This document shows, one piece after another, positions 14,525 through 54,610 of a stretch of DNA of 64,000 nucleotides (the stretch's first letter is position 1; the number at the start of each line of letters is the position of its first letter). Under the pieces are notes generated by a model. The model had not been told where the DNA came from. It worked only from the letters and a program-made list of their open reading frames with translations, and did no database searches. Source of the stretch: Caulobacteraceae bacterium (GTDB lineage: Bacteria; Pseudomonadota; Alphaproteobacteria; Caulobacterales; Caulobacteraceae); NCBI GenBank assembly GCA_036388855.1, contig DASVRA010000011.1, positions 38,253 through 102,252 of the forward strand, given 5' to 3'. The translations under genes were made by a program, and so were the position numbers.

Positions 14525-16135
14525 ATGGCCAATCCACACATCGAGCGCGAGGCGGCGAGGCGGCGCACCTTCGCCATCATTTCGCACCCCGACGCCGGCA
14601 AGACCACGCTGACCGAGAACCTGCTGCTGGCCGGCGGCGCAATCCGCGCGGCGGGGCAGGTCCGCGCGCGCGGCGAGAACCGGCGCACGCGCTCGGACTG
14701 GATGAAGATCGAGCGCGAACGGGGGATCTCGGTTTCCGCCAGCGTGATGACCTTCGACCACGCCGGGCTGATGTTCAACCTGCTCGACACCCCGGGACAC
14801 GAGGATTTCTCCGAGGACACCTACCGCACGCTGACGGCCGCCGACGCGGCGGTGATGGTGCTGGACGCCGCCAAGGGGATCGAGCCGCAGACGCTGAAGC
14901 TGTTCGAGGTCTGCCGCCTGCGCGACATCCCGATCCTGACCTTCATCAACAAGATGGATCGCGAAGCCCAGGACCCGATCGAGCTGCTCGACGAGATCGC
15001 CTCCAAGCTCGCGCTTGACCCAGCGCCGCTCTACTGGCCGGCCGGCTCGGGGCGACAGTTCAAGGGCATGGTCGAACTCCAGACGGGCCGCTTCCTCCCC
15101 TTCGCCCACCGCACCGGCGGATCGACGGGACCCGACGAGGGTCACCCCGAGGCTGTTGCGCTCAAAGGCAACGCGGTGGTCCAGTTCCTGGACGAGGCGG
15201 AGCAGGCGGATCTCGAAGAGTCCGCCGAGCTGGTCCAGCACGGCTATCCCGCCTTCGAGCGCCGGTCGTTCCTCGAAGGCCACATGACCCCGGTCTTCTT
15301 CGGCTCGGCGCTCCGCCACTTCGGCGTCGACCAACTGCTGGGCGGGCTCGGCGGCCACGCGCCAGCGCCCAAACCGGCAAAGGCGGAGCGCGCCGGAGCC
15401 GAAGCCTGTATCGAACCGGGCGCGGACGAGGTCTCCGGCTTCGTGTTCAAGGTCCAGGCGAACATGGACCCCAACCACCGCGACCGCATCGCCATGCTGC
15501 GGCTGGCCTCGGGCGAGTTCCGGCGCGGCATGAAACTGAAGGTGCAGAACACGGGGCGGCAGCTGTCGGTGAACGCGCCAATCATGTTTTTCGCTTCGGA
15601 CCGGGAGCTGGCGCAGGACGCCTTCGCCGGTGACGTGATCGGCATTCCCAACCACGGCGTCCTGCGGGTGGGCGACAGCCTGTCGGAGAGCGGCCTCTAC
15701 CGCTTCGCCGGCCTGCCCAACTTCGCCCCCGAAATCCTCCAGCGCGTGCGGGTCAAGGATCCGCTCAAAGCCAAGCACCTGAAGAAGGCGCTGGAGGGCC
15801 TGGGCGAGGAAGGTGTGACCCAGCTGTTCCGCCCGCTGATCGGCTCCGATTTCATCGTCGGCGCCGTGGGGCAGCTGCAGTTCGAGGTGATGGCCGACCG
15901 GCTGGCCAACGAATACGCGCTGGAGGTGATCTTCGAACCCGCCCCCTACGCCGAAGCCCGCTGGCTCGGTGGCGACCCGGCCGCGATCGAGGACTTCGCG
16001 GGCAAGCACCGCACGGCGATTGCCGAGGACATCGACTCCGCCCCGGTGTTCCTGGCCAAGTCCGCCTGGGAGACCGGCTACGTCGCCGAGCGGTATCCCA
16101 AGGTGGCGTTCCTGCGCACCCGCGAGCGGGGCTGA
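14525..16135 (+). CDS. prfC: peptide chain release factor 3
   Basis: GTPase G1 AIISHPDAGKTTLTE and DTPGHEDF, with RF3-length C-terminal domains. Confidence 0.95.
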   Translation: MANPHIEREAARRRTFAIISHPDAGKTTLTENLLLAGGAIRAAGQVRARGENRRTRSDWMKIERERGISVSASVMTFDHAGLMFNLLDTPGHEDFSEDTYRTLTAADAAVMVLDAAKGIEPQTLKLFEVCRLRDIPILTFINKMDREAQDPIELLDEIASKLALDPAPLYWPAGSGRQFKGMVELQTGRFLPFAHRTGGSTGPDEGHPEAVALKGNAVVQFLDEAEQADLEESAELVQHGYPAFERRSFLEGHMTPVFFGSALRHFGVDQLLGGLGGHAPAPKPAKAERAGAEACIEPGADEVSGFVFKVQANMDPNHRDRIAMLRLASGEFRRGMKLKVQNTGRQLSVNAPIMFFASDRELAQDAFAGDVIGIPNHGVLRVGDSLSESGLYRFAGLPNFAPEILQRVRVKDPLKAKHLKKALEGLGEEGVTQLFRPLIGSDFIVGAVGQLQFEVMADRLANEYALEVIFEPAPYAEARWLGGDPAAIEDFAGKHRTAIAEDIDSAPVFLAKSAWETGYVAERYPKVAFLRTRERG

Positions 16136-16154
16136 GGGCATCCGCCGCGCCTGA

Positions 16155-18436
16155 TCACTGGAAGTGCGCCTTGACGTAGTCGGTGATCGAGCCGCCCGAG
16201 AGTTCGGCGGTTGAATTGGCCCCCCGGACGTAGAACCTCTGCACCCCGCCGTCCTTGACGAACGCCGGCTTGGGGCCGCGTTCGCAGCGCACCACCAGGA
16301 TGCGCTCCGCGTCCTGGTCCTCGAAGTGGGGGTGGACGTAGGGGAGGAACACCTCCCCGATGCGGTCACGGATCAGGTTGACCAGGTGAAGGCTCATCTT
16401 GTCTTCGCTCTCGAACGCGTCGGCGGCGAGCCCGAGCACCTGTCCGCCGTCCGAAACGCCGATGATCAACGCCCCGCCTTGGGCGTTGAGGAAGCCCGCG
16501 ATCGTCTTCAGCGCCGCCAGGTGCATCTTCTCGTCAGTCTGGCCGGTGTGGAGGTTGGTGCGCAGCGTCGACTTGAACTCCACGCCGCCGCTTTCACCCG
16601 CTGCGATCAGCGCGCTCACCGACACTGGCGCGGGGGCGGGGTCCTCGCCCCTTCCGGTCAGGTCTTCGTAGGCGCGGCGGATGACCTGGGCCATGCGCAG
16701 CCGGCGCGCCTTCAGGAACTCGGGGTAGGACAGCTCCCACCAGTGCTCCGGCAGGGCGTGCCAGAAGCGCGACCTTTCTCGCTCCGCCGGCGACATCGCC
16801 GCTTCAAGCGCGGGCGCGTAGTCGGCGGGCGCCTGGTCGCTGATGTGGAGGTTGTCCGGCCACTCCAGGACGGCGAAGTTGGCGATCTGGTTGACCTCTC
16901 GCACCTCGCTGACGCCGAGCTTGGCGAGATAGGCCTTGGGAAACAGGTGGTGCTGCTCGAACGCGGCGCGTGATCCCTTGACGGCGGGATCGACCATGTC
17001 GCCGATCTTCAGCGGGCTATAGAGGGCGCGCGCGCCTAGCTTGATCAAGGCCGCCTGGTAGGCGGAGCGCGAGGGGCTGCGGGCCGCCGAGGTGGCCAGC
17101 GCCGATGGCAGGGAGATTTCCCAGTAGTCCTTGGTCAGCACCGTCCCGCACATTCCGCGCAGCTTCTGCAGGAAAGCGGCGCCGGTGGTGACGCCGCGCA
17201 ACTGGGCGATGTCGAACTCGAAGATGGTCTCGGGCGAGCTGGTGTATCTCCCGGTGAGCGAGCACATGAAGAAGAACTCGGCGATCCCCTGGCGGATCTC
17301 CTGCTTGGGCAGGCCGTAGTCGCAGATGCCGATCAGGTAGAGCACGTAGGAATAGATCACCGCCGTATCGGAGGTGATCATGCCTTCGTGCCGGTAGCCC
17401 GCGAGCTGCAGCGCGCTGAGGAAGTGGTGCCAGTTCGACAGGTTGAGCGCGCGCTCCTGAGCCGATTTCAGGATGGCGAACTGCGACTCGCGCTTCTGCG
17501 GATCGACCTCTCCGGTCGCGGCGTCCCGGCCGCGCAGCACGCTGTAGACGTTCTGCAGGCGGGCCCGCTTGAGGCCGAGCCCGACGCCCACGCGCAGCAT
17601 CTGGTCCGGCGAGGGGCGGATGAAATGATTGTAGGGCGACGCGCCGCCCGCGCCCGGTCTGGCGGCTTCGCGGGCGAAGCGCTCCAGCTCGGCCCGGCCC
17701 TGGTCCCAGAAGACCGACATCAGGGTCATGATGAAGTCGGCCTGGTTCAGTTTCTTGCCTTCGCCGTTGATCCTGACGAAGACTTCGGCCACCGCCTCCG
17801 GGTCCACGGAAGAGGACAGCGTCAGGGCGGTGAAGCTGTACTGCAGCAGGCTGTGGAGGTGGCTGATGGCGTCCAGCGCCGCCTCCTCCTCGTCCTCGGT
17901 GAGGTCCGGCCGGACGCCCTTCAGCTCCTTGATGTAGCTCCGCCGAACTGGAAGAGCTTGGTCTCCGGATGCCACAGGACCGAGATGTCGGGGATGTAGG
18001 TCTTGTCCTTGGCGACCGAGGCGTCGTGCACGTCGAACCGCCTGGCCAGCGGATTGAAGGCGATGCGGATGCGTTCCTTTCGGAAATTGGCCCGCAGCAC
18101 CTCCTTGGCCCGGGTGACGGCGTAGAGGGAAGTGAGGCGCTGCTGGCCGTCGACGATGGCCAGTGAAGACGCCTTCTGCCCCGCATTGGCGCCGATCGCG
18201 CGCAGGGTGGCGTCCGCGCCGGTCTCCCAGAACAGCAGGTAGCCGGCCGGATAGCCGCGATAGAGGGAGTCGAACAGGTTGCGGACATTGACGTTGGGCC
18301 AGACGAAGGGCCGCTGAATCTCCGGCAGGCCGATCTTGCCGCTGTCGATATCCTCCACCAGCGAGGTCAAGGGATAGGCGGTGGTGGTGAACAGGGCCAC
18401 GGAGCGTCCTGAAAATTGCAACGGTTCGGCGAGCAT
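16155..18436 (-). pseudogene. frameshifted GmrSD-type (DUF262 + DUF1524 His-Me finger) nuclease with C-terminal AlbA_2/Schlafen-type domain
   Basis: ORF 17921..18616 (from ATG 18436) carries IGLPEIQRPFVW and DGQQRLTSL. ORF 16155..18461 continues the same domain in another frame (VFVRINGEGKKLNQADF), then FEQHHLFPKAYL...NQIANFAVLEWPDN, then ESGGVEFKSTL...AGFLNAQGGALIIGVSDGGQVLGL. The frame change is near 17942-17956. Confidence 0.75.
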
Positions 18437-18554
18437 GGCCGGTCTGGTCGCTTCGCCGCAAGAGCTTAACCTATCCCCTGAGCGGCAGCCGACGGTGCAA
18501 GCGTCGCTATGAACCTCGGCCCCTCCTGGCCGTTCAGGCCGGACGGAGGCGGGC

Positions 18555-19478
18555 GTGAGCGATATCCTCGACGCGGTGATCATCGGCGCCGGCCCCGGCG
18601 GCCTTTCCGGCGCCATCTACCTCGCTCGGTTCCAGCGGCGCTTCCTGGTGATCGACTCGGGCGAGAGCCGGCTCGACTGGATTCCCTGCACCCACAACCA
18701 CCCTGGCTTCCCCGATGGCGTCGAAGGCCCGGTGCTGCGTGGACGCATCCGCGAGCAGGCTGAGCGCTACGGCGCGCGGATCAGGCCCGGCCGTGTGGTG
18801 CGACTGGCCGGTGGGGACTGGAACTTCGAGTTGGCGCTGGAGGACGGGGAGACGTTGCGCGCCCGCAAGGTGCTGCTTGCCACCGGCGTTATCGACAACG
18901 AACCGGCCATCGAGGGTTTCCGCGAGGCGGTGCGACACACACAGATCCGCATCTGCCCGATCTGCGACGCCTACGAGGCGCGCGGAAAAGCCATCGGCAT
19001 CGTCGGCAATTCGGCCAAGGGCGCGCGCGAGGCGCTTTTCCTGCGGGGATACTCCGACAAGGTGACGCTCATCCACGTTGGCGCCGCCGAGACCTTGCCC
19101 GATCGGGAGCGGCGGGAGATCGCCGAAGCGGGCGTCGAGCTGATCGTGACGCCGATCGAGGGGCTGCTGATCGGCGAGGACGAGATCGCGGCGCTGGATT
19201 TCGGCTCGGGCGGCGTGCGGCGGTTCGACACCCTCTATTCCGCGCTCGGCACGACGCCGCGGGGCCAGCTGGCCGAGCAGATCGGCGCGCTCACCGATCC
19301 CGGCGGCTGTCTGCAGGTCAACGATCATCAGGAAACCGCCGTCCCCGGCTTGTATGCGGCGGGCGACCTGGTGCGCGGCTTAAACCAGATCAGCGTGGCC
19401 CAAGGCGAGGCTGCGATCGCGGCGACCGACATCCACAACAAGCTGAGGCAGGCGGGCCTCGCCCAACAGGCCCCCTAA
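18555..19478 (+). CDS. thioredoxin-reductase-like FAD/NAD(P) oxidoreductase
   Basis: GAGPGG dinucleotide motif (VIIGAGPGGLSGAIY), CxxC in ICPICDAYE, and C-terminal GLYAAGD. GTG start with GGAGG upstream. Confidence 0.85.
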   Translation: MSDILDAVIIGAGPGGLSGAIYLARFQRRFLVIDSGESRLDWIPCTHNHPGFPDGVEGPVLRGRIREQAERYGARIRPGRVVRLAGGDWNFELALEDGETLRARKVLLATGVIDNEPAIEGFREAVRHTQIRICPICDAYEARGKAIGIVGNSAKGAREALFLRGYSDKVTLIHVGAAETLPDRERREIAEAGVELIVTPIEGLLIGEDEIAALDFGSGGVRRFDTLYSALGTTPRGQLAEQIGALTDPGGCLQVNDHQETAVPGLYAAGDLVRGLNQISVAQGEAAIAATDIHNKLRQAGLAQQAP

Positions 19479-19479
19479 C

Positions 19480-19665
19480 TCAGGCGGCGTTCTCGCGCTC
19501 GACGCGGACCAGGCGGGTGGCGCGGTTCCAGATCTCCACCGCGGCGTGCTCGGCGGCGCGCTCGCGGGCGATCGCGCGCGCGTCCTCGGCATCCTTGCAC
19601 GCGATCCAGTCGCCGAACTTGATGCGTCCGTCTTCGCTGAAATAGTAGATGCGCGCGTCGGCCAT
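19480..19665 (-). CDS. small hypothetical protein (61 aa)
   Basis: MADARIYYFSEDGRIKFGDWIACKDAEDARAIARERAAEHAAVEIWNRATRLVRVERENAA. Balanced composition. It is the tail of a longer shadow ORF. No clear SD. Confidence 0.35.
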   Translation of the reverse strand: MADARIYYFSEDGRIKFGDWIACKDAEDARAIARERAAEHAAVEIWNRATRLVRVERENAA

Positions 19666-19849
19666 GGCTGAGCCGGTCCGTCTCCAAACTGCGGAGCGGA
19701 AGATGGCGCGGCGCTCCGGATATGGCCACGCGGCATCTCGTCCCAGCGGCGAGCCCGCCGCACCCGCGCAAGTTTTTTCGGGACTCACGGCTCCGCTTTT
19801 GCTCCAGTTGCGTTGTCCTCCCTGGCGGCCGTGCCGCCTTGGGACTGAC

Positions 19850-21187
19850 ATGATCGGAAGCGGGCGAATGTTCGAGATGGGACGGGAGCTGAAGCGGCTG
19901 TTCGGAGCCGCCGCCCCGCGTGATGGTCTCGCCCTCGGCGACGGCGCCCTGCTCGAACTCCTCGACCTCGAACTCCTCCGCCGCGAAGCCGGCCAGTCCG
20001 ACATCGCCGCCGGCCGCGTCTCCACCAGGGACCGCCCCATGCGCCGCCTGGAATCGGCCGCCGTGTGGCGCGAGCTCGCCCGCCGCACCGGCGACGCCGC
20101 GGCGCTGCGCAAAGCCGCCTCCGCCGCCGAACTGGCGCACCGGGGCTTCGCCGAAGAAGGGCGCGCCGACGAGGCCGCCACCGCTCAGGTGGAGCGCGCC
20201 CGCGCCGCGATGCTCGGCGCCGAACTGTTTGCCGAGGAGGGCCTGAACGCCGCCGCCGGCCATGTGCTGACCGAGGCGGCGGACGCCTCAGCCCCCGCCC
20301 AAGGTGGTCTGGCGGTGATCGGCGCGCGCATGACGCTCGCCTCCGGCGGGCTAGACGAGGCGCTGGAATGCGCCTCCGGCTTCGACATCGCGCTTCGCCA
20401 ACTGCAGGGCGACGAGCACCGCGCGCTGCGCTTCGAACGCGCCGAGGCGCTGGTCGCCTTCGGGGCGCGGCTGCATGACCCGCTGCTGCACAAGATGGCG
20501 CTGGGCGACCTGGAGGTGGCCGGGCACGAACTCGACCCCGCCTACCGTCCGCTCACCTGGGCCCGGGTTCAGGAATTGCGCGCCGCCGCGCTTGCCGGCA
20601 TCGGTGAGTGCCACGGCGACGCCACCCCGCTCGCGCAGGCGGTGAACCTGCTGAACGAGGCGGCCGAGCAGCTGAGCCCCGAGCACTCCCCCCTCGACTG
20701 GGCCCGGGTGCAGAACGGCCTGGCCGCCGCCCTGATGTCCCTGGCCGAAGCCTCCGGCTGCGAGAGCGGCTATGACGAAGCCCTTGAGCGGCTCGACGCC
20801 ACCATGCAGCTCCTGGCCGGGGGAACCCACCTCGCTCTACGTGCGGCGGTCGTCCAGAATCGCGCCGGCTGCCTGCTCCGCCGCGCGGAGGCGCTCAGCG
20901 ATGTGCGCGCGATCGACCGCGCCGAGGCGGCCTTCCGCGCCGAACTGGCCGCCCTGCCCCGTCCGGTGGAGCCGGTGGCCTGGGCGGTGCTGCAGCTGAA
21001 CCTGGCGCGGGTCTATACCGCCCGCGCCGTCCTGAACGGCCGCGACCGGGGCGAGCGCCTGCGCGCCTCGGAAGCCCTGCTTGCGGCGCTGGACGTGTTC
21101 GGCGAGCACGGCTGCCGCTCGCTCAGCGTCATTGGCCTCAACGAACTGGAGCGACTGCGCGAGGCGGCGCCCCGCGTCGCCCGCTGA
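19850..21187 (+). CDS. TPR-like helical repeat protein
   Basis: Reiterated P-x-x-W-A-x-x-Q-x-x-L/A units (PLTWARVQELRAAAL, PLDWARVQNGLAAAL, PVAWAVLQLNLARVY), as in TPR_12-type repeats. ATG 19850 lies inside ORF 19649..21187. Confidence 0.6.
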   Translation: MIGSGRMFEMGRELKRLFGAAAPRDGLALGDGALLELLDLELLRREAGQSDIAAGRVSTRDRPMRRLESAAVWRELARRTGDAAALRKAASAAELAHRGFAEEGRADEAATAQVERARAAMLGAELFAEEGLNAAAGHVLTEAADASAPAQGGLAVIGARMTLASGGLDEALECASGFDIALRQLQGDEHRALRFERAEALVAFGARLHDPLLHKMALGDLEVAGHELDPAYRPLTWARVQELRAAALAGIGECHGDATPLAQAVNLLNEAAEQLSPEHSPLDWARVQNGLAAALMSLAEASGCESGYDEALERLDATMQLLAGGTHLALRAAVVQNRAGCLLRRAEALSDVRAIDRAEAAFRAELAALPRPVEPVAWAVLQLNLARVYTARAVLNGRDRGERLRASEALLAALDVFGEHGCRSLSVIGLNELERLREAAPRVAR

Positions 21188-21190
21188 CGC

Positions 21191-22222
21191 CTATTGCGGG
21201 TCCGACGCCCGCCGCTCGGCGGCCCGGGCCTGGGCGGCCCGGATCTGGCCCTGGGTCTTGCCCTTTTCGTTGACCTTCGGCGGCAGGGGCGGCGGCGGCT
21301 CGGCCATGTCGGCCACGCCCTGTTCGAAGAATTCCTTGGGCATCTGGATCGGGTCGGGCGCCTCGCCGAACGCACGATGCACCGAGTAGCGGCGCGGCGC
21401 GGTCCCCGCGACCGAATAGCTGCTCACCGGCGCACCTCGGGCGTAGCGGGGGGTCAGCGGCGGCGGCGCCAGGGCGGCGGCTTGCGGCGATGCGGCTCGC
21501 GCGGCCGGAGCCGCGGCTAGGGGAGCGGGGGCGACGGCCGCGAGCGGGTCAGACTTGAGATCACCCGCGACAGGTGCGGCCCAGGGCCGGACCACCGGCT
21601 GCGCGGGCGCGGCGGCGACGGGAAGGCTGAGGAGCGTGTTGCCCACGGCCGGGGCCGGAAGCGGCGCCTGCCGGGCGGGCGCGGGCGGCGGCGCGGCATA
21701 GATGCTCGAAGGCAGAGCCGCCGGTCGCGTCGCCGGCATGGGTGCGCTGGCAAACCGCTGCGTCGCCTCCCGATCTGAAGGCTGGAGGTAGTCTGCGTCG
21801 GGCGGCGGGGCGGCAGAAACGGCTGGCGCTGGGGCCGGCCTGAATTGCGGCAGGGGCCGCGGCGCGCGCATCGGGGCGGGCGGCTGATAGACGGCGAGCC
21901 GCTCGGGCTCTGATGTGGCCATAGGCGCGGTTGGTGCGAGCGAGTGCACGGGCGTCCGCTCGGCTGGGCCGGCGACCTTGCCGGGCCAACTCAGCGTCCG
22001 CTGAACCCGGGGAGAAGCGCTGGTCGCGACGGCTTCCGGCCACACGGTGGCGCGGCTCACCTCCGGCGCCGGAGCGGGCGGAGGCGTGGCGGCTGGGGCC
22101 GAGACGAAGATGATGCCGCGTCCGGCGGGTCGGCCGGGCGAATAGCGGTCCTGGACCTGGGCTTGGGCGGCCGCCGACAAAGTGGCCGCGGCGGCGGCGA
22201 GAGCGAAGACGGCGGTGCGCAT
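21191..22222 (-). CDS. secreted Pro/Ala-rich hypothetical protein
   Basis: Clear signal peptide MRTAVFALAAAAATLSAAAQA, long Pro/Ala-rich body, and a conserved-looking C-terminal ~70 aa. Confidence 0.65.
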   Translation of the reverse strand: MRTAVFALAAAAATLSAAAQAQVQDRYSPGRPAGRGIIFVSAPAATPPPAPAPEVSRATVWPEAVATSASPRVQRTLSWPGKVAGPAERTPVHSLAPTAPMATSEPERLAVYQPPAPMRAPRPLPQFRPAPAPAVSAAPPPDADYLQPSDREATQRFASAPMPATRPAALPSSIYAAPPPAPARQAPLPAPAVGNTLLSLPVAAAPAQPVVRPWAAPVAGDLKSDPLAAVAPAPLAAAPAARAASPQAAALAPPPLTPRYARGAPVSSYSVAGTAPRRYSVHRAFGEAPDPIQMPKEFFEQGVADMAEPPPPLPPKVNEKGKTQGQIRAAQARAAERRASDPQ

Positions 22223-22824
22223 GCGAAGGAGCCTCCCGGTCCCGCCGCTGCAATAGCCGTGCCGCGCTTAACCCGCGCCTAATGAAGAGGAAAATTGGGG
22301 AGATCGGGAGCGCCAAACAGGCTTGAGGGGGCGGCGCTTCCGGCGTGAGCCATGGCGTCGTCCCCTCACCACGTCCGGATCGGACCTGGGCCTGAAGGCC
22401 GTCGGCGCACGGGCGGCTCTCGCCTCCCGAACGCTTCGGGTTGACCGTCAGGTTCGGCGGGGGTGACCCGGATCCTGACGGCCGTTCGCAGCCACGAAGC
22501 TCTGGGCTCTCGCCCTTTGCTTCGGCCTCCGAACCTCCAGCTTCGGCTTTCGCCTCCACTCTCGGCTCGATGGTTCCGGCTTCCGGAGTTTCCGGTCTTC
22601 CGCTTGCGCTTCCGACCGGCCTTTCCGTCCGCCGGGGCCTTGAATTCCCTCGGCAAGTGGAGGGTGGCTCAGGCCCGCACCGGGCGCAACAGCGCCCTTC
22701 GCCGGTGGTGTGCACAACATCGTTCGTCGCGGTGGACAAGGCTGTTGATGGAATCCGCCAGCCCTTGCGGGGCAAGGCGTCGGCGCTGTCCACATCATTT
22801 GCGAAGGCGGCGGGAACCGGCCCG

Positions 22825-50615: not shown

Positions 50616-50630
50616 GCCGTGGAGACCGCC

Positions 50631-51458
50631 ATGCACATCGAACGCATCGCCGCCTTCTCCGACGGCGAGACCGGAGGCAACCCCGCCGGCGTCGTCCTGT
50701 GCGAAGCCCTTCCCAGCCCCCAGGCCATGCAGGCCCTCGCCGCCGAGGTCGGCTATTCCGAGACCGCCTTCGCCGCGCCGCAGGGGGACGGCTGGCGCGT
50801 GCGCTATTTCGCGCCGGCGATGGAGGTGCCGTTCTGCGGCCACGCCACCATCGCGCTGGGTGCGGCGCTGGCCGAGAAGCACGGCGACGGCGTCTTCGCC
50901 CTGCACCTGAACGCGGCGGAGATCACCGTCGAAGGCTGGTGCGAGGACGGCGCGCTGATGGCGGCCCTGCAGTCGCCCCCGACCCGCAGCGCCCCCGCGC
51001 CCGCCGGCCTGACCGCCGCCGCGCTGGACCTGTTCGGCTACGCCCCCGCCGATCTCGACCCCCGCCTGCCGCCCGCGATCATCGAGGCCGGGGCGCGCCA
51101 CCTGCTGCTGGCGTTACGCAGCCGAGAGCGGCTGGCGGCGATGGCCTACGACCTGGAGCAGGGACGCGCCCTGATGACCGCCGCCGGCCTCGTCACCATC
51201 AGCCTGGTGCAGGCCGAGACCCCCGCCCGCTTCCACGCCCGCAACCCCTTCGCCGCGGGCGGCGTCTACGAGGACCCGGCCACCGGCGCCGCCGCCGCAG
51301 CCCTGGCCGGCTACCTGCGCGACCTCCGCTGGCCCCACGGCGGGGAGATCGAGGTGCTGCAAGGCGCCGACATGGGCGTGCCGTGCCGCCTGCGGGCGGA
51401 GATCACCAATGAGGCGGGGGCGAGCGTGCGGGTGTGGGGGCGGACGCGGGGGATTTGA
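50631..51458 (+). CDS. PhzF-family isomerase
   Basis: AAFSDGETGGNPAGVV, SETAF and VPFCGHATIA motifs. ATG 50631 (GTG 50619 is possible). Confidence 0.85.
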   Translation: MHIERIAAFSDGETGGNPAGVVLCEALPSPQAMQALAAEVGYSETAFAAPQGDGWRVRYFAPAMEVPFCGHATIALGAALAEKHGDGVFALHLNAAEITVEGWCEDGALMAALQSPPTRSAPAPAGLTAAALDLFGYAPADLDPRLPPAIIEAGARHLLLALRSRERLAAMAYDLEQGRALMTAAGLVTISLVQAETPARFHARNPFAAGGVYEDPATGAAAAALAGYLRDLRWPHGGEIEVLQGADMGVPCRLRAEITNEAGASVRVWGRTRGI

Positions 51459-51627: not shown

Positions 51628-52488
51628 GTGACCGCATCGCAACCGAGCATTCCCACGATGCGTTCGGTGTCGCCGTTTCGGTATCCGGGCGGGAAGGCCT
51701 TTCTCTACAGGTATCTTAACGATCGACTCAATTCGTTACCGGAAGGCCGACGCATCTATGCCGAGCCATACTGCGGCGGGGCGGGGGCTGCGGTCATTCT
51801 CCTTAAGTTAGGTGCTGTCGAAGAAATCCATCTCAATGATGCTGATCTCAAAGTATATTCGGCTTGGGAAGCCATTCTTACTGAGTCGGAGCGATTTGCT
51901 TCGCAGATCATGTCAACACCTGTGGACATGTTCACTTGGTATGCGTGCCGAGAGTTAGTCGAAGGTGCGACTGAGCCGAGCTTTGAGCTGGGTTTCGCAA
52001 CGTTCTTTCTAAATCGGACGAGCCGGTCTGGCATTGTGGTCGGCGCAGGGCCGATCGGTGGGTATGAACAGCGAGGGACTTGGAAGATCGACGCGAGATT
52101 CAATAGAGAGGCATTGGCGGATCGAGTTCGATGGCTAGGATCAGTTCGTCATTCCATCAAGTTGACTCAAGAAGACGCGTTGACTTTCTTATCTCGCTCT
52201 ACCGCCCGCCTCTCGTTGGACCGAACGCTCTTTTTTGTAGACCCACCGTACGTCACCGCTGGCGGGCGGCTTTATTTGAACGCGATGGACGAGGGAAAGC
52301 ACATCGCCTTAAGTGATGTCCTCCAGGGCGGTACGCTGCCCCACTGGGTTCTGACTTACGACAATCACCCGCTTATTCTGGACCTATACAGCCGTCAAAC
52401 AATCCGTGACCTCTGCGTAAGCTACAGCCTTCAGAACAAGCGAAAGGAGCGCGAAGTACTCATTGGCGATCATGCCGCCTGCGCATAA
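51628..52488 (+). CDS. D12-class (Dam-like) N6-adenine DNA methyltransferase
   Basis: SPFRYPGGKAFL, EPYCGGAGA (SAM site), FFLNRTSRSG and catalytic FVDPPY. The start is GTG 51628 or ATG 51658. Confidence 0.85.
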   Translation: MTASQPSIPTMRSVSPFRYPGGKAFLYRYLNDRLNSLPEGRRIYAEPYCGGAGAAVILLKLGAVEEIHLNDADLKVYSAWEAILTESERFASQIMSTPVDMFTWYACRELVEGATEPSFELGFATFFLNRTSRSGIVVGAGPIGGYEQRGTWKIDARFNREALADRVRWLGSVRHSIKLTQEDALTFLSRSTARLSLDRTLFFVDPPYVTAGGRLYLNAMDEGKHIALSDVLQGGTLPHWVLTYDNHPLILDLYSRQTIRDLCVSYSLQNKRKEREVLIGDHAACA

Positions 52489-53450
52489 GCGCAGTAGCCG
52501 TAGACCCACGCCCGAACATCATCGATGAGATCGGCACCGTCGACCGGTACCCCTGCTGCGGATAGTTGGAGCCCCTGCCACGCCCTGAGCGGCAATCTGG
52601 AACGCTCGAGAATCGCGCGATGGTATTGGTGCATGAGATTCCAATGTCGCTGATCAATCACTCGAAACGGGATTAGAGTGACATGAGTAATGTTACCCGT
52701 CGCGTGATCCTGAATGTAGGCGGCAGTGAACGTGTCGGCTCGGTTTGCTACGGGCTTGTCTTCCCAGTTTCGTCCGCTAGCCGTTTGCCCAAAATAAAAC
52801 ACTGTCGGTGGCGGCTGCCCGTCAAGGGTAAAGGCGATGACGTCGATGCCGCCATCCTTCTCTTTGGGTGGGGTGTAAGCGCCCGGGGGATTTCGAACCG
52901 TGAACCCTGCGCCCGCGGCTGCGGCACGGTTCAGCAGTTCGACGATGGCCTCTCCCGATTGACGAGGCCATCCAACGCTGAATGCCGGTCCACCGGCTAG
53001 ACCAGCAACACCTAGGGTAGCGACGATCTGAAATACCTTGTTCCGGAGCTCCAACAGCATTTCGTCGGTAGGAGGTTTATCCAGTATTGAGGATCCCGTA
53101 GCGTGAGCCGCCACAAGGCAGACGATGTAGAACACCAATTTGGGTTCATCCCGCCAACTCAGGTTGATGGTGACCTCGTCACCAGACTCGGATAGCTGGT
53201 AGGGGTACGTGTCTTCGAGGGTTTTCTGCCGGAATGAAACCTCAGCCTCGATGCGCTCAACGAGCTGCTCGCGCCCCTGATCCCGCCGCCCTATGTCATC
53301 TTCCGCAGTCGGTTCTAGTTCCGCCAGCGAACCTAGGAGCGCATCCAGTCTGGACACCCCGTACGGGTCGAAAAGCGCGGCGAGCTCTAGCCAGTCGACA
53401 AGGTCATCAACTTCAAGGGCAAGATTAGGCGCGTTGACTACCTGGGACAT
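52470..53450 (-). CDS. orphan 326-aa protein, possible degenerate nuclease-like core
   Basis: Full ORF with ATG, starting 8 nt after the upstream stop. The segment KDGGIDVIAF...FYFGQTASGRNW is only loosely reminiscent of Mrr-cat/PD-(D/E)xK. No family recognised. Low-GC codon usage matches the island. Confidence 0.6.
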   Translation of the reverse strand: MSQVVNAPNLALEVDDLVDWLELAALFDPYGVSRLDALLGSLAELEPTAEDDIGRRDQGREQLVERIEAEVSFRQKTLEDTYPYQLSESGDEVTINLSWRDEPKLVFYIVCLVAAHATGSSILDKPPTDEMLLELRNKVFQIVATLGVAGLAGGPAFSVGWPRQSGEAIVELLNRAAAAGAGFTVRNPPGAYTPPKEKDGGIDVIAFTLDGQPPPTVFYFGQTASGRNWEDKPVANRADTFTAAYIQDHATGNITHVTLIPFRVIDQRHWNLMHQYHRAILERSRLPLRAWQGLQLSAAGVPVDGADLIDDVRAWVYGYCAYAQAA

Positions 53451-53458
53451 TTCGCTTG

Positions 53459-54610
53459 CTATGACAGCGTAGCGCTAGCGACCGCCGAATCCACCTGGGT
53501 CTTGACGATGCCTGCTCTCTTTGCCGCCGAATCCGCGATCATTTGAAGCTCCGGCTGCGCAATAGGGTCGAAGCCTTCAAGCGTCGTCAAGGCATGTTGT
53601 AGCTCGGCATTGGCGCTGATGAGGTGGCGTTGAAAGCGAATATCTACTGGCGTAGCCGTGATGATCGCTTCATCCAGGTTGTTTCGCTCTGTTAACACGC
53701 TGATGGCCGCCGGTGAGGACAACACTTCCCGTAACCTACCAAGATCAGGGTTTTGGCTCTTAACGGCGGGCTCTAAGTCCCGATCTTTAGAGCCGTACAG
53801 CCATATCAGTAGGTTACGAAGTTCGCTAAACTTGCCTTCTGGCACCGGATCCAAACTTGGATCGGCCGATCGGTCCGCTCTTGGCATTCCGAGATAGGCC
53901 GTGAATTCCTCATAGGCCAGGCCGGTATAAAGGTGGGAGAAGCTGAAAGATTTCCGCTTTCGGTCTGAAAGATCATAGATGCGGTTCTTCTCGGCCTGAT
54001 TCAGAACATAGAGCGCAGCGACCATGCGGTGCATCGTCATGTGCTGATCGCCCATCCGACTGGCAATCTGACTAAGGTTCATGCTGGGCTGGCCAGACGC
54101 CCGTTTCCGGTTTTCATCATCTAACCAGCGCGCGGCGAAACGAGCTTTGGCGAAGGCGTCCCACGATTGAGGTCCGTTGATGTGCTTGAATCCAATTAGA
54201 TCCCGCGCGTCGTCCTCGCGTTCAACACGAAACACCAGCAGCTCATTGAGCGTTGCTGCTTTGTCTGGCTCCATCGGTGGAACCGTCGTTCGCGCCGCCC
54301 GAGCAAGTTCTGGGTCACGCAAAACCTTTACCGCTGCCAAGCGGCGGTTTCCCTCCAGGACTGCTAATCGACTATCGCGCTCGATAACAATCAATGGCTC
54401 GATATTGATATAGCCGCTAGTCGAAATGGACTGGATCAATTCGGACAAATCCGCGGACGCAGCCAACGTGGCAATGATCGCGCTGTCGGTCGATTCCGCA
54501 GGCCGTTTGTCCGGAGTAAATCGGGGATTATTCTCATCGAAATCTAGGAGTTCAACGGGAACTTTCGCGGCCTCACCGATCGGAGGCAGAAGCACGCTAC
54601 CGTCGGCCAT
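53459..54610 (-). CDS. ParB/Srx-fold N-terminal domain + HTH protein (stand-alone, no ParA)
   Basis: ParB N-domain box VLEGNRRLAAVKVL. HTH-like NLSQIASRMGDQHMTMHRMVAALYVL. GGGGA SD 6 nt before the ATG. The C-terminal ~170 aa are unassigned. Confidence 0.7.
   Translation of the reverse strand: MADGSVLLPPIGEAAKVPVELLDFDENNPRFTPDKRPAESTDSAIIATLAASADLSELIQSISTSGYINIEPLIVIERDSRLAVLEGNRRLAAVKVLRDPELARAARTTVPPMEPDKAATLNELLVFRVEREDDARDLIGFKHINGPQSWDAFAKARFAARWLDDENRKRASGQPSMNLSQIASRMGDQHMTMHRMVAALYVLNQAEKNRIYDLSDRKRKSFSFSHLYTGLAYEEFTAYLGMPRADRSADPSLDPVPEGKFSELRNLLIWLYGSKDRDLEPAVKSQNPDLGRLREVLSSPAAISVLTERNNLDEAIITATPVDIRFQRHLISANAELQHALTTLEGFDPIAQPELQMIADSAAKRAGIVKTQVDSAVASATLS

Follow-up and report, generated by a model that had tools for sequence, protein, structure and literature searches.

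A probable BrxU-like type IV restriction gene with a C-terminal Schlafen domain, interrupted by a frameshift, in a Caulobacteraceae genome

Does the minus strand at positions 16155–18436 of the stretch analyzed here encode two genes, one gene that has been broken, or one gene that only looks broken in the assembly, and what kind of protein would it make? The stretch (hereafter, the window) is 64,000 nucleotides long and comes from a Caulobacteraceae bacterium (assembly GCA_036388855.1, contig DASVRA010000011.1, positions 38,253–102,252). An initial annotation, made from the letters of the window, had placed here a GmrSD-type nuclease (DUF262 plus DUF1524) with an extra AlbA_2/Schlafen-type domain, split by a frameshift. 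Here, we report that the minus strand from 18400 to 16155 holds a single gene read in two frames. The locus is likely a horizontally acquired single-gene anti-phage defence gene, i.e., a type IV restriction enzyme of the GmrSD family, closest to BrxU, with a Schlafen nuclease domain added at its C terminus.

Domain content of a gene read in two frames

The listing of open reading frames (ORFs) and their translation give two overlapping ORFs in different frames, between prfC (14525–16135, plus strand) and a thioredoxin-reductase-like gene (18555–19478, plus strand); all features of the gene described below lie on the minus strand. Frame A runs from 18436 to 17921 and encodes the N-terminal half of a DUF262/ParB-like NTPase. 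Its end reads ..HPETKLFQFGGATSRS (in a longer stretch, ..DISVLWHPETKLFQFGGATSRS), and its last seven codons (GGATSRS) before the TGA at 17923–17921 are out of frame. Frame B is open from 18461 to the stop at 16155 and crosses the junction as ..RRSYIKELKG.. (..RRSYIKELKGVRPDL..). The coordinates, peptide strings and two frames given in the initial annotation are correct. In the JGI annotation of metagenome contig Ga0334935_000006 (330 kb, sample 3300034781), the pieces appear as separate overlapping genes of 171 aa (frame A) and 606 aa; these two calls should become one (pseudo)gene. As the start we prefer GTG 18400 to ATG 18436, because the homologues align collinearly from MA(L/I)FTTT to the C terminus; this GTG is preceded by AGGA, and the product begins with MALFTTT.. 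like the homologues. With one base restored, the whole gene (16155–18400), aligned with its homologues, encodes a 748-aa BrxU-like GmrSD-family enzyme with a C-terminal Schlafen domain.

In Pfam searches, frame A matches GmrSD_N (DUF262, PF03235) with E 6.7e-22 over profile positions 2–93 only, and frame B takes up the same profile at positions 135–196 (E 9.2e-5; 17724–17903 of the window, ..VFVRINGEGKKLNQADF..). The DUF262 domain is therefore genuinely split by the change of frame, at the place where the frameshift had been put initially; an intact homologue matches PF03235 with E 9.8e-29. The window protein carries the motifs QRPFVW, RNLFDS (18266–18283) and DGQQR (18137–18151). Among 118 aligned close relatives, R, L, D and S of RNLFDS are found in all, F in 115 and N in 93, and DGQQR is kept in 117–118; apart from that N, the DUF262 motif positions are conserved in 115–118 sequences. 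In BrxU, RLFDS and DGQQR bind and hydrolyse nucleotide and control a dimer–monomer switch (PMC8565348). RNLFDS is the counterpart of this RLFDS, and DGQQR is the nucleoside triphosphate (NTP) hydrolysis motif of DUF262 (PMC8565348, 10.1101/2024.01.29.577857). Both the DUF262 domain and the DGQQR and RLFDS-type motifs that characterise the BrxU-like GmrSD family are thus found.

The C terminus of frame B matches SLFN_AlbA_2 (PF04326, E 1.6e-14; 16206–16595), bearing out the AlbA_2 domain proposed from the letters. Profile matches in the Protein Data Bank (PDB) include SLFN11 (6.4e-4), SLFN14 (1.7e-3) and Slfn8 (8.8e-3), and Foldseek returned 3lmm, the SAMD9 AlbA_2 domain, SLFN13, SLFN14, SLFN11, SLFN5 and SLFN12. 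The Schlafen catalytic motif, defined as E-x4-(E/D)-x-K (PMC13056530 / 10.1101/2025.07.24.666596), reads ESGGVEFK (16571–16594) and aligns with ESQSIEFK of SLFN11; the third acidic active-site residue is the Asp of GVSD (16449–16451), which aligns with GVDD of SLFN11 and Slfn8. All 118 close relatives aligned, among them the window copy, keep the E, E and K of the motif and this Asp.

Between the NTPase and the Schlafen domain lies an alpha-helical linker as in BrxU (16953–17723; AlphaFold2 helices at residues 201–469, pLDDT >90; Foldseek), followed by a short stretch (16851–16952, HHLFP ... NQIANFAVLEWPDN) that conservation, the structure model and collinearity with BrxU mark as the probable core of a divergent DUF1524-type His-Me (HNH) finger. 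The AlphaFold2 model was calculated from an 82-sequence alignment (mean pLDDT 93, pTM 0.79) and replaced a first model from 10 sequences, which was unusable (pLDDT 46). It predicts strands at 481–485 (..FEQHH) and 509–513 and a helix at 514–520 (WPDNLHI). Residues H484, H485, P488, N504, N508 and N517 (748-aa numbering) are invariant in all 118 close relatives, and the His-Me residues are nearly invariant in relatives down to ~30% identity. In the alignment, HHLFP corresponds to DHIYP of BrxU and NQIANFAVLEWPDN to BrxU NKLPNLQLLEGTINN, so that the (D/E)H..P ... N ... N signature of the His-Me/HNH fold is found after the helical linker. A profile of 82 relatives matched BrxU in the PDB (7p9k) with E 4e-24; a third, weak C-terminal segment of this match is collinear (query 486–579 versus BrxU 481–579). 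Foldseek aligned the model with BrxU at E 2.7e-13 across 670 alignment columns. The predicted fold and the conserved residues, rather than a Pfam profile, support the presence of a divergent GmrSD-type His-Me finger.

BrxU is the top match of the window family by sequence profile, by fold and by PADLOC, in which an intact homologue has HEC-05 (= BrxU) as its best match (E 1.8e-33). The two share an N-terminal DUF262 with RLFDS-like and DGQQR motifs, a long helical linker and a C-terminal His-Me nuclease, in which (D/H)H-hydrophobic-aromatic-P matches DHIYP of BrxU and N..N(L/F)..(L/V)LE...N the asparagine segment aligned above. This agrees with the GmrSD-type enzyme, i.e., DUF262 NTPase plus His-Me nuclease, of the initial annotation. 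They differ in that identity is ~18%, the first residue of the nuclease motif is His in the window family and Asp in BrxU, the window family has no Pfam DUF1524 match and carries a ~150-aa C-terminal Schlafen domain, and the window gene is frameshifted and not embedded in BREX. Eco94GmrSD and EcoCT GmrSD likewise unite DUF262 and an HNH-type nuclease in one polypeptide, were historically mis-called as two genes, and belong to a family with accessory C-terminal domains (DUF4268, DUF4357, DNA_binding_1; PMC4619093); however, they have no RLFDS motif, whereas BrxU and the window protein have one of this type, and AlbA_2/Schlafen is not among the extra domains listed in that 2015 survey (PMC4619093). 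SspE and HEC-06 also have an N-terminal DUF262 with DGQQR and a C-terminal HNH-type nuclease, but their matches are much weaker (SspE, E 0.089 against the PDB), neither has a Schlafen domain, and SspE depends on phosphorothioate sensing.

On the Schlafen side, the domain shares its fold and the catalytic E-x4-E-x-K...D with the AlbA_2 domains of SLFN11/13/14 and SAMD9/9L, and eukaryotic Schlafens and SAMD9/9L are, in the same manner, antiviral tRNases fused to a nucleic-acid-dependent NTPase module. Eukaryotic Schlafens differ in having two AlbA_2-like lobes and a C-terminal helicase, while the window protein has a single AlbA_2 after a ParB-like NTPase and an HNH nuclease. The fusion had been taken initially to lie outside the described enzymes, which does not hold: Perez Taboada et al. 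(bioRxiv 2025; Nat Microbiol 2026, PMC13056530) catalogued 5,930 prokaryotic Schlafens, of which DUF262 fusions make up 1.8% (109 proteins, class pSlfn7), and 119 of our 120 best matches are fused. The features of this class, i.e., PF04326, the catalytic motif and the fusion to DUF262, are all present in the homologues and in the repaired window gene; in the window as written, the DUF262 of the fusion is split. Six accessions of family members were not found among the rows listed of the supplementary tables of the Schlafen paper. EcoSlfn7 of E. coli UC4224 cuts T7 plating ~540-fold and also reduces other phages (PMC13056530). It resembles the window protein in the order PF03235 then PF04326, in the Ex4ExK motif and in being a single-gene system; it differs in length (589 aa versus 748 aa), in overall sequence (28% identity over 69 aa) and in having DGLQR instead of DGQQR, and the HH..N..N His-Me motif was not seen in it by eye. 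Its gene (NZ_CP104472.1, 9001–10770 of the extracted locus) belongs to a P2-like prophage, where it is flanked by the portal gene and the DinI-like/replication genes, a classic P2 defence hotspot.

Several points weigh against the assignment of the locus as a BrxU-like enzyme with a Schlafen nuclease. DUF1524 (PF07510) gave no match at E <= 10 in the window region or in an intact homologue, and it was weak in 6 of 52 diverse relatives (best E 0.012); a search of NCBIfam for DUF1524 gave no match either. Judged strictly by profile, the C-terminal DUF1524 of GmrSD members is missing: of the three domains proposed initially, the profile searches returned GmrSD_N and SLFN_AlbA_2 and not DUF1524, in whose place structure and conserved residues indicate the divergent His-Me finger. 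When the nuclease region alone was used as a profile against the PDB, BrxU was reached only at E 0.27, which is not significant. Foldseek TM-scores to BrxU are low (0.31/0.39) because the domain orientations differ, as these are flexible multi-domain proteins. The expectation that the enzyme would cleave DNA modified with hydroxymethylcytosine (hmC), glucosylated hmC (glc-hmC) or 5-methylcytosine (5mC) in an NTP-dependent way derives solely from homology to BrxU. EcoSlfn7 is remote from the window family and has no HH..N..N, so that its phenotype is not simply transferable. There are also AlbA_2 domains that bind nucleic acid and do not cleave it.

The gene is accessory in this part of the Caulobacteraceae genome. 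The best relatives of the neighbouring prfC come from Phenylobacterium and Caulobacter (79–83% identity), which makes the host a member of the Caulobacteraceae, and the GmrSD-Schlafen gene is found in none of the 80 relative loci identified through prfC; neither it nor the thioredoxin-reductase-like gene was detected in the relatives' loci that show both prfC and the downstream conserved ORF. The distance from the downstream conserved ORF (the homologue of 19649–21187) to prfC varies from 0.3 to 5.8 kb in nine close Caulobacterales relatives and is 3.5 kb in the window. Absence in the relatives together with this varying gap places both genes in a variable spot (16136–19648). In 500-nucleotide windows, the gene has 65–68% G+C against 68–70% in its immediate flanks; it is only slightly lower, much as estimated initially. 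No convincing flanking direct or inverted repeats were found as island borders in 15800–19900, and no tRNA genes were found in the window. Intact homologues are in typical defence or mobile contexts, i.e., between insertion sequence elements in Bradyrhizobium, beside an Eco57I-like giant gene, AbiE and an integrase in Croceicoccus, and directly after hsdR-hsdM-hsdS and beside Zorya-like genes in a Rhizobiaceae metagenome-assembled genome. No conserved partner gene was found; the commonest neighbour cluster occurs in 4 of 29 homologue loci and no neighbour in more, from which we consider the gene a stand-alone module. For the window itself the finding is of little weight: a common accessory defence gene is present in a soil-type Caulobacteraceae genome, in one copy that may be broken.

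The site of the frameshift and the state of the homologues

Alignment with nine intact homologues, a check suggested in the initial annotation, places a single-nucleotide deletion between TTC (17947–17945) and AGC (17939–17937), in ..TTCGGCGGAGC... The site (17938–17945; ~63252–63259 of contig Ga0334935_000006) reads ..TTC GGCGG AGC.., with one base missing. Once a base is restored, the protein reads FQF-(G/R)-(R/G)-SYIKELKG, with the same spacing as F-x-F-A-x-x-Y-I of the homologues, and this correct spacing identifies the lesion as a deletion of one nucleotide.

The joined, frame-repaired protein was used as the query for the homologue search, in which 7,912 of 8,000 candidates scored matched at E <= 1e-5. 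Among the 120 best matches, 119 have both PF03235 and PF04326 in a single ORF, of ~747 aa (about 745–790 aa) and 65–75% identity to the query; the best homologues come from Bradyrhizobium, Mesorhizobium, Sinorhizobium, Acidisoma, Croceicoccus, Sphingomonadaceae and many metagenomes. A protein-guided scan of metagenome contigs gave 53 loci, the closest 74% identical. Of the 36 with full coverage, 30 are one complete open frame, three run off the contig end and three are disrupted at other positions. The uninterrupted single polypeptide that is a feature of the GmrSD family is thus seen in the homologues and, due to the deletion, not in the window copy. Of the disrupted loci, L036 and L040 are frameshifted near residues 200–211 and 335–348; in L013 the break, near residue 290, is in frame. 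L040 and L013 share 99.5% identity, with 11 gaps between them. Genes of this family become pseudogenes fairly often, or else those assemblies are prone to indels.

As to whether the frameshift is real, we find the balance close, tipping roughly and slightly towards a real lesion. The initial annotation had named recent inactivation and an assembly indel as the two options, and we keep both. The repaired protein breaks none of the 161 columns that are invariant in all other sequences of the 118-sequence alignment and one of the 286 columns that are at least 95% conserved, ranking 88 of 118 by violations, and the catalytic motifs of the window copy are all intact. There is no sign of decay, and the lesion must therefore be very recent, or else an indel of the metagenome assembly. 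A sequencing or assembly artefact, with the organism itself carrying an intact, working 748-aa ORF, has in our estimate a little less than an even chance. The window derives from a JGI metagenome contig, the lesion is a lone single-nucleotide one in a GGCGG context, and the repaired protein is as well conserved as the intact homologues. There is also precedent in the family: EcoCT GmrS/GmrD, at first taken for two genes, proved to be a single polypeptide (PMC4619093, 10.1101/2024.01.29.577857), and Machnicka et al., in their 2015 survey, cautioned that sequencing errors may lie behind GmrS/GmrD calls that are split and adjacent (PMC4619093). Against an artefact, the contig is not riddled with indels, as none of the 20 other genes called up to 10 kb to the left or right looks broken; the site has no long homopolymer; and true pseudogenisation is frequent among defence genes, with the three of 36 homologue loci disrupted elsewhere as examples. 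An exact DNA pattern, AAGCTCTTCCAGTTC-N{5,11}-CTACATCAAGGAGCTG, had no match in metagenome contigs, the source contig itself being also unmatched, and no near-identical intact allele was found in the scanned metagenome collections, where the best identity is 74%.

In the window as written, the gene gives a 159-aa N-terminal stub (171 aa from ATG 18436) and perhaps, at best, an N-terminally truncated product that has no QRPFVW, RLFDS or DGQQR. Since only a stub and a truncated product are possible, the system is non-functional as written, unless the indel is an artefact.

Possible roles of the Schlafen domain in intact relatives

What the intact relatives would do, and how their activities would be coupled, we infer from their domains. 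By analogy with BrxU, the DUF262/ParB-like NTPase would gate activity through nucleotide binding and hydrolysis and a dimer–monomer cycle; the His-Me finger (HHLFP...N..N...N) would cut modified phage DNA; and the Schlafen domain, with Ex4ExK and Asp, would add a second nuclease, most likely cleaving tRNA or other RNA and so shutting down translation. Our tentative proposal is that the ~747-aa family may be a two-layer immune enzyme in a single polypeptide, i.e., an NTP-gated DNase against modified phage DNA, backed up by a Schlafen RNase that would cleave tRNA and abort the infection once the DNase is engaged or inhibited. In an intertwined dimer of the BrxU type, two single AlbA_2 domains could pair and imitate the two-lobed clamp of eukaryotic Schlafens. 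Among the characterised type IV restriction enzymes, we know of none that carries an RNase effector of its own. The only DUF262-Schlafen protein tested, EcoSlfn7, seems to be without the DNase; compared with it, the window family is a larger and distinct branch, in which the Schlafen domain comes in addition to a complete predicted GmrSD DNase. This family, uniting a predicted DNase and a predicted Schlafen RNase in a GmrSD-type protein, is the sole part of our findings with some potential for novelty. With an intact Schlafen site beside a complete predicted GmrSD DNase, this large, alphaproteobacteria-rich family would be a good model for the coupling of DNA and RNA effectors in one protein.

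The AlbA_2 domain might instead be a nucleic-acid-binding sensor or targeting module, which would steer or activate the His-Me DNase upon meeting a ligand, e.g., modified DNA, single-stranded DNA or phage RNA, and would not be an RNase effector. We consider this conceivable and rather doubtful. Its best structural matches include the DNA-binding AlbA_2 domain of SAMD9 (7ksp) and 3lmm, and sister ~590-aa cores bear C-terminal DUF4268 or RAMA/DUF4357, or N-terminal Mrr_N, in its stead, or have no extra domain; Mrr_N is typical of the DNA-recognition add-ons of type IV enzymes. However, E-x4-E-x-K and the Asp, aligned with the SLFN11 active site, are kept throughout the close relatives, which is unexpected for a pure binding module; one sister protein has a weak match to a HEPN RNase family (E 4.7e-4), and tRNase activity is what tests of prokaryotic Schlafen domains have shown (PMC13056530).

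Whether the Schlafen domain acts as effector or as sensor, the ~590-aa core seems to serve type IV enzymes as a modular platform. In an exhaustive search of cluster representatives at 50% identity, the core occurs alone, with DUF4268 or RAMA/DUF4357 replacing the Schlafen domain, and with an N-terminal Mrr_N. Relatives with varied add-on modules on a BrxU-like core of this length are P0122, P0125, P0128, P0140 and P0143, of which P0122 (1194 aa) has RAMA, DUF4357 and DUF4268 after its Schlafen domain.

Less probable origins of the two frames, and neighbouring genes

It had been suggested initially that selection inactivated the gene, which would have turned self-toxic once the host had acquired a Dam-class methyltransferase, encoded 33 kb away. 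A D12-like ORF is indeed there (51628–52488, plus strand) with a DPPY motif (FFVDPPYV), but its match to the D12-class N6-adenine methyltransferases is weak and limited to profile positions 1–76 (PF02086, E 8.3e-6). Loss of type IV enzymes upon gaining a clashing modification is a known phenomenon and speaks for the idea. Yet the DNA that characterised BrxU and GmrSD enzymes are reported to cut carries modified cytosines (5mC, 5hmC, glc-5hmC) and not N6-methyladenine (PMC8565348, PMC12409352), the two genes are unlinked, with unrelated genes between them, and nothing separates this scenario from neutral loss or an artefact. With a weak methyltransferase match and cytosine targets, we find the proposed link to inactivation without support and regard it as very improbable.

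That two separate genes, or a programmed frameshift, are the normal functional state is scarcely credible and can be ruled out: JGI did call overlapping genes of 171 aa and 606 aa, but the 119 single-ORF best matches show that two genes are not the normal state of the homologues, which the initial annotation had raised as a possibility, 33 of the 36 full-coverage metagenome loci are a single frame or run off the contig end (30 complete), the break, which lies between positions 93 and 135 of the DUF262 profile, is internal to that domain, and neither a slippery heptamer nor a homopolymer is present at the site.

Please note that two neighbourhoods recur around the homologues, each in 4 of 29 loci (L003/L004/L005, L021, L022, L024, L027 and L038). 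In one, an Eco57I-like protein of ~1,350 aa is encoded upstream; in the other, a pair of small genes lies downstream, the first of ~223 aa with no Pfam match and the second with a REase-ARP domain. These neighbours may be partners specific to sub-lineages. Beside the methyltransferase-like ORF of the window, a PhzF-like gene (50619–51458) is located upstream, and the ORFs at 52470–53450 and 53459–54610 have no Pfam match. On the other side of the variable spot from prfC, the ORF at 19649–21187 (512 aa) has no Pfam match and is conserved beside prfC in Caulobacteraceae (33–46% identity); the stretch 19649–22500 is unusually high in G+C, 73–77% against ~69% nearby.

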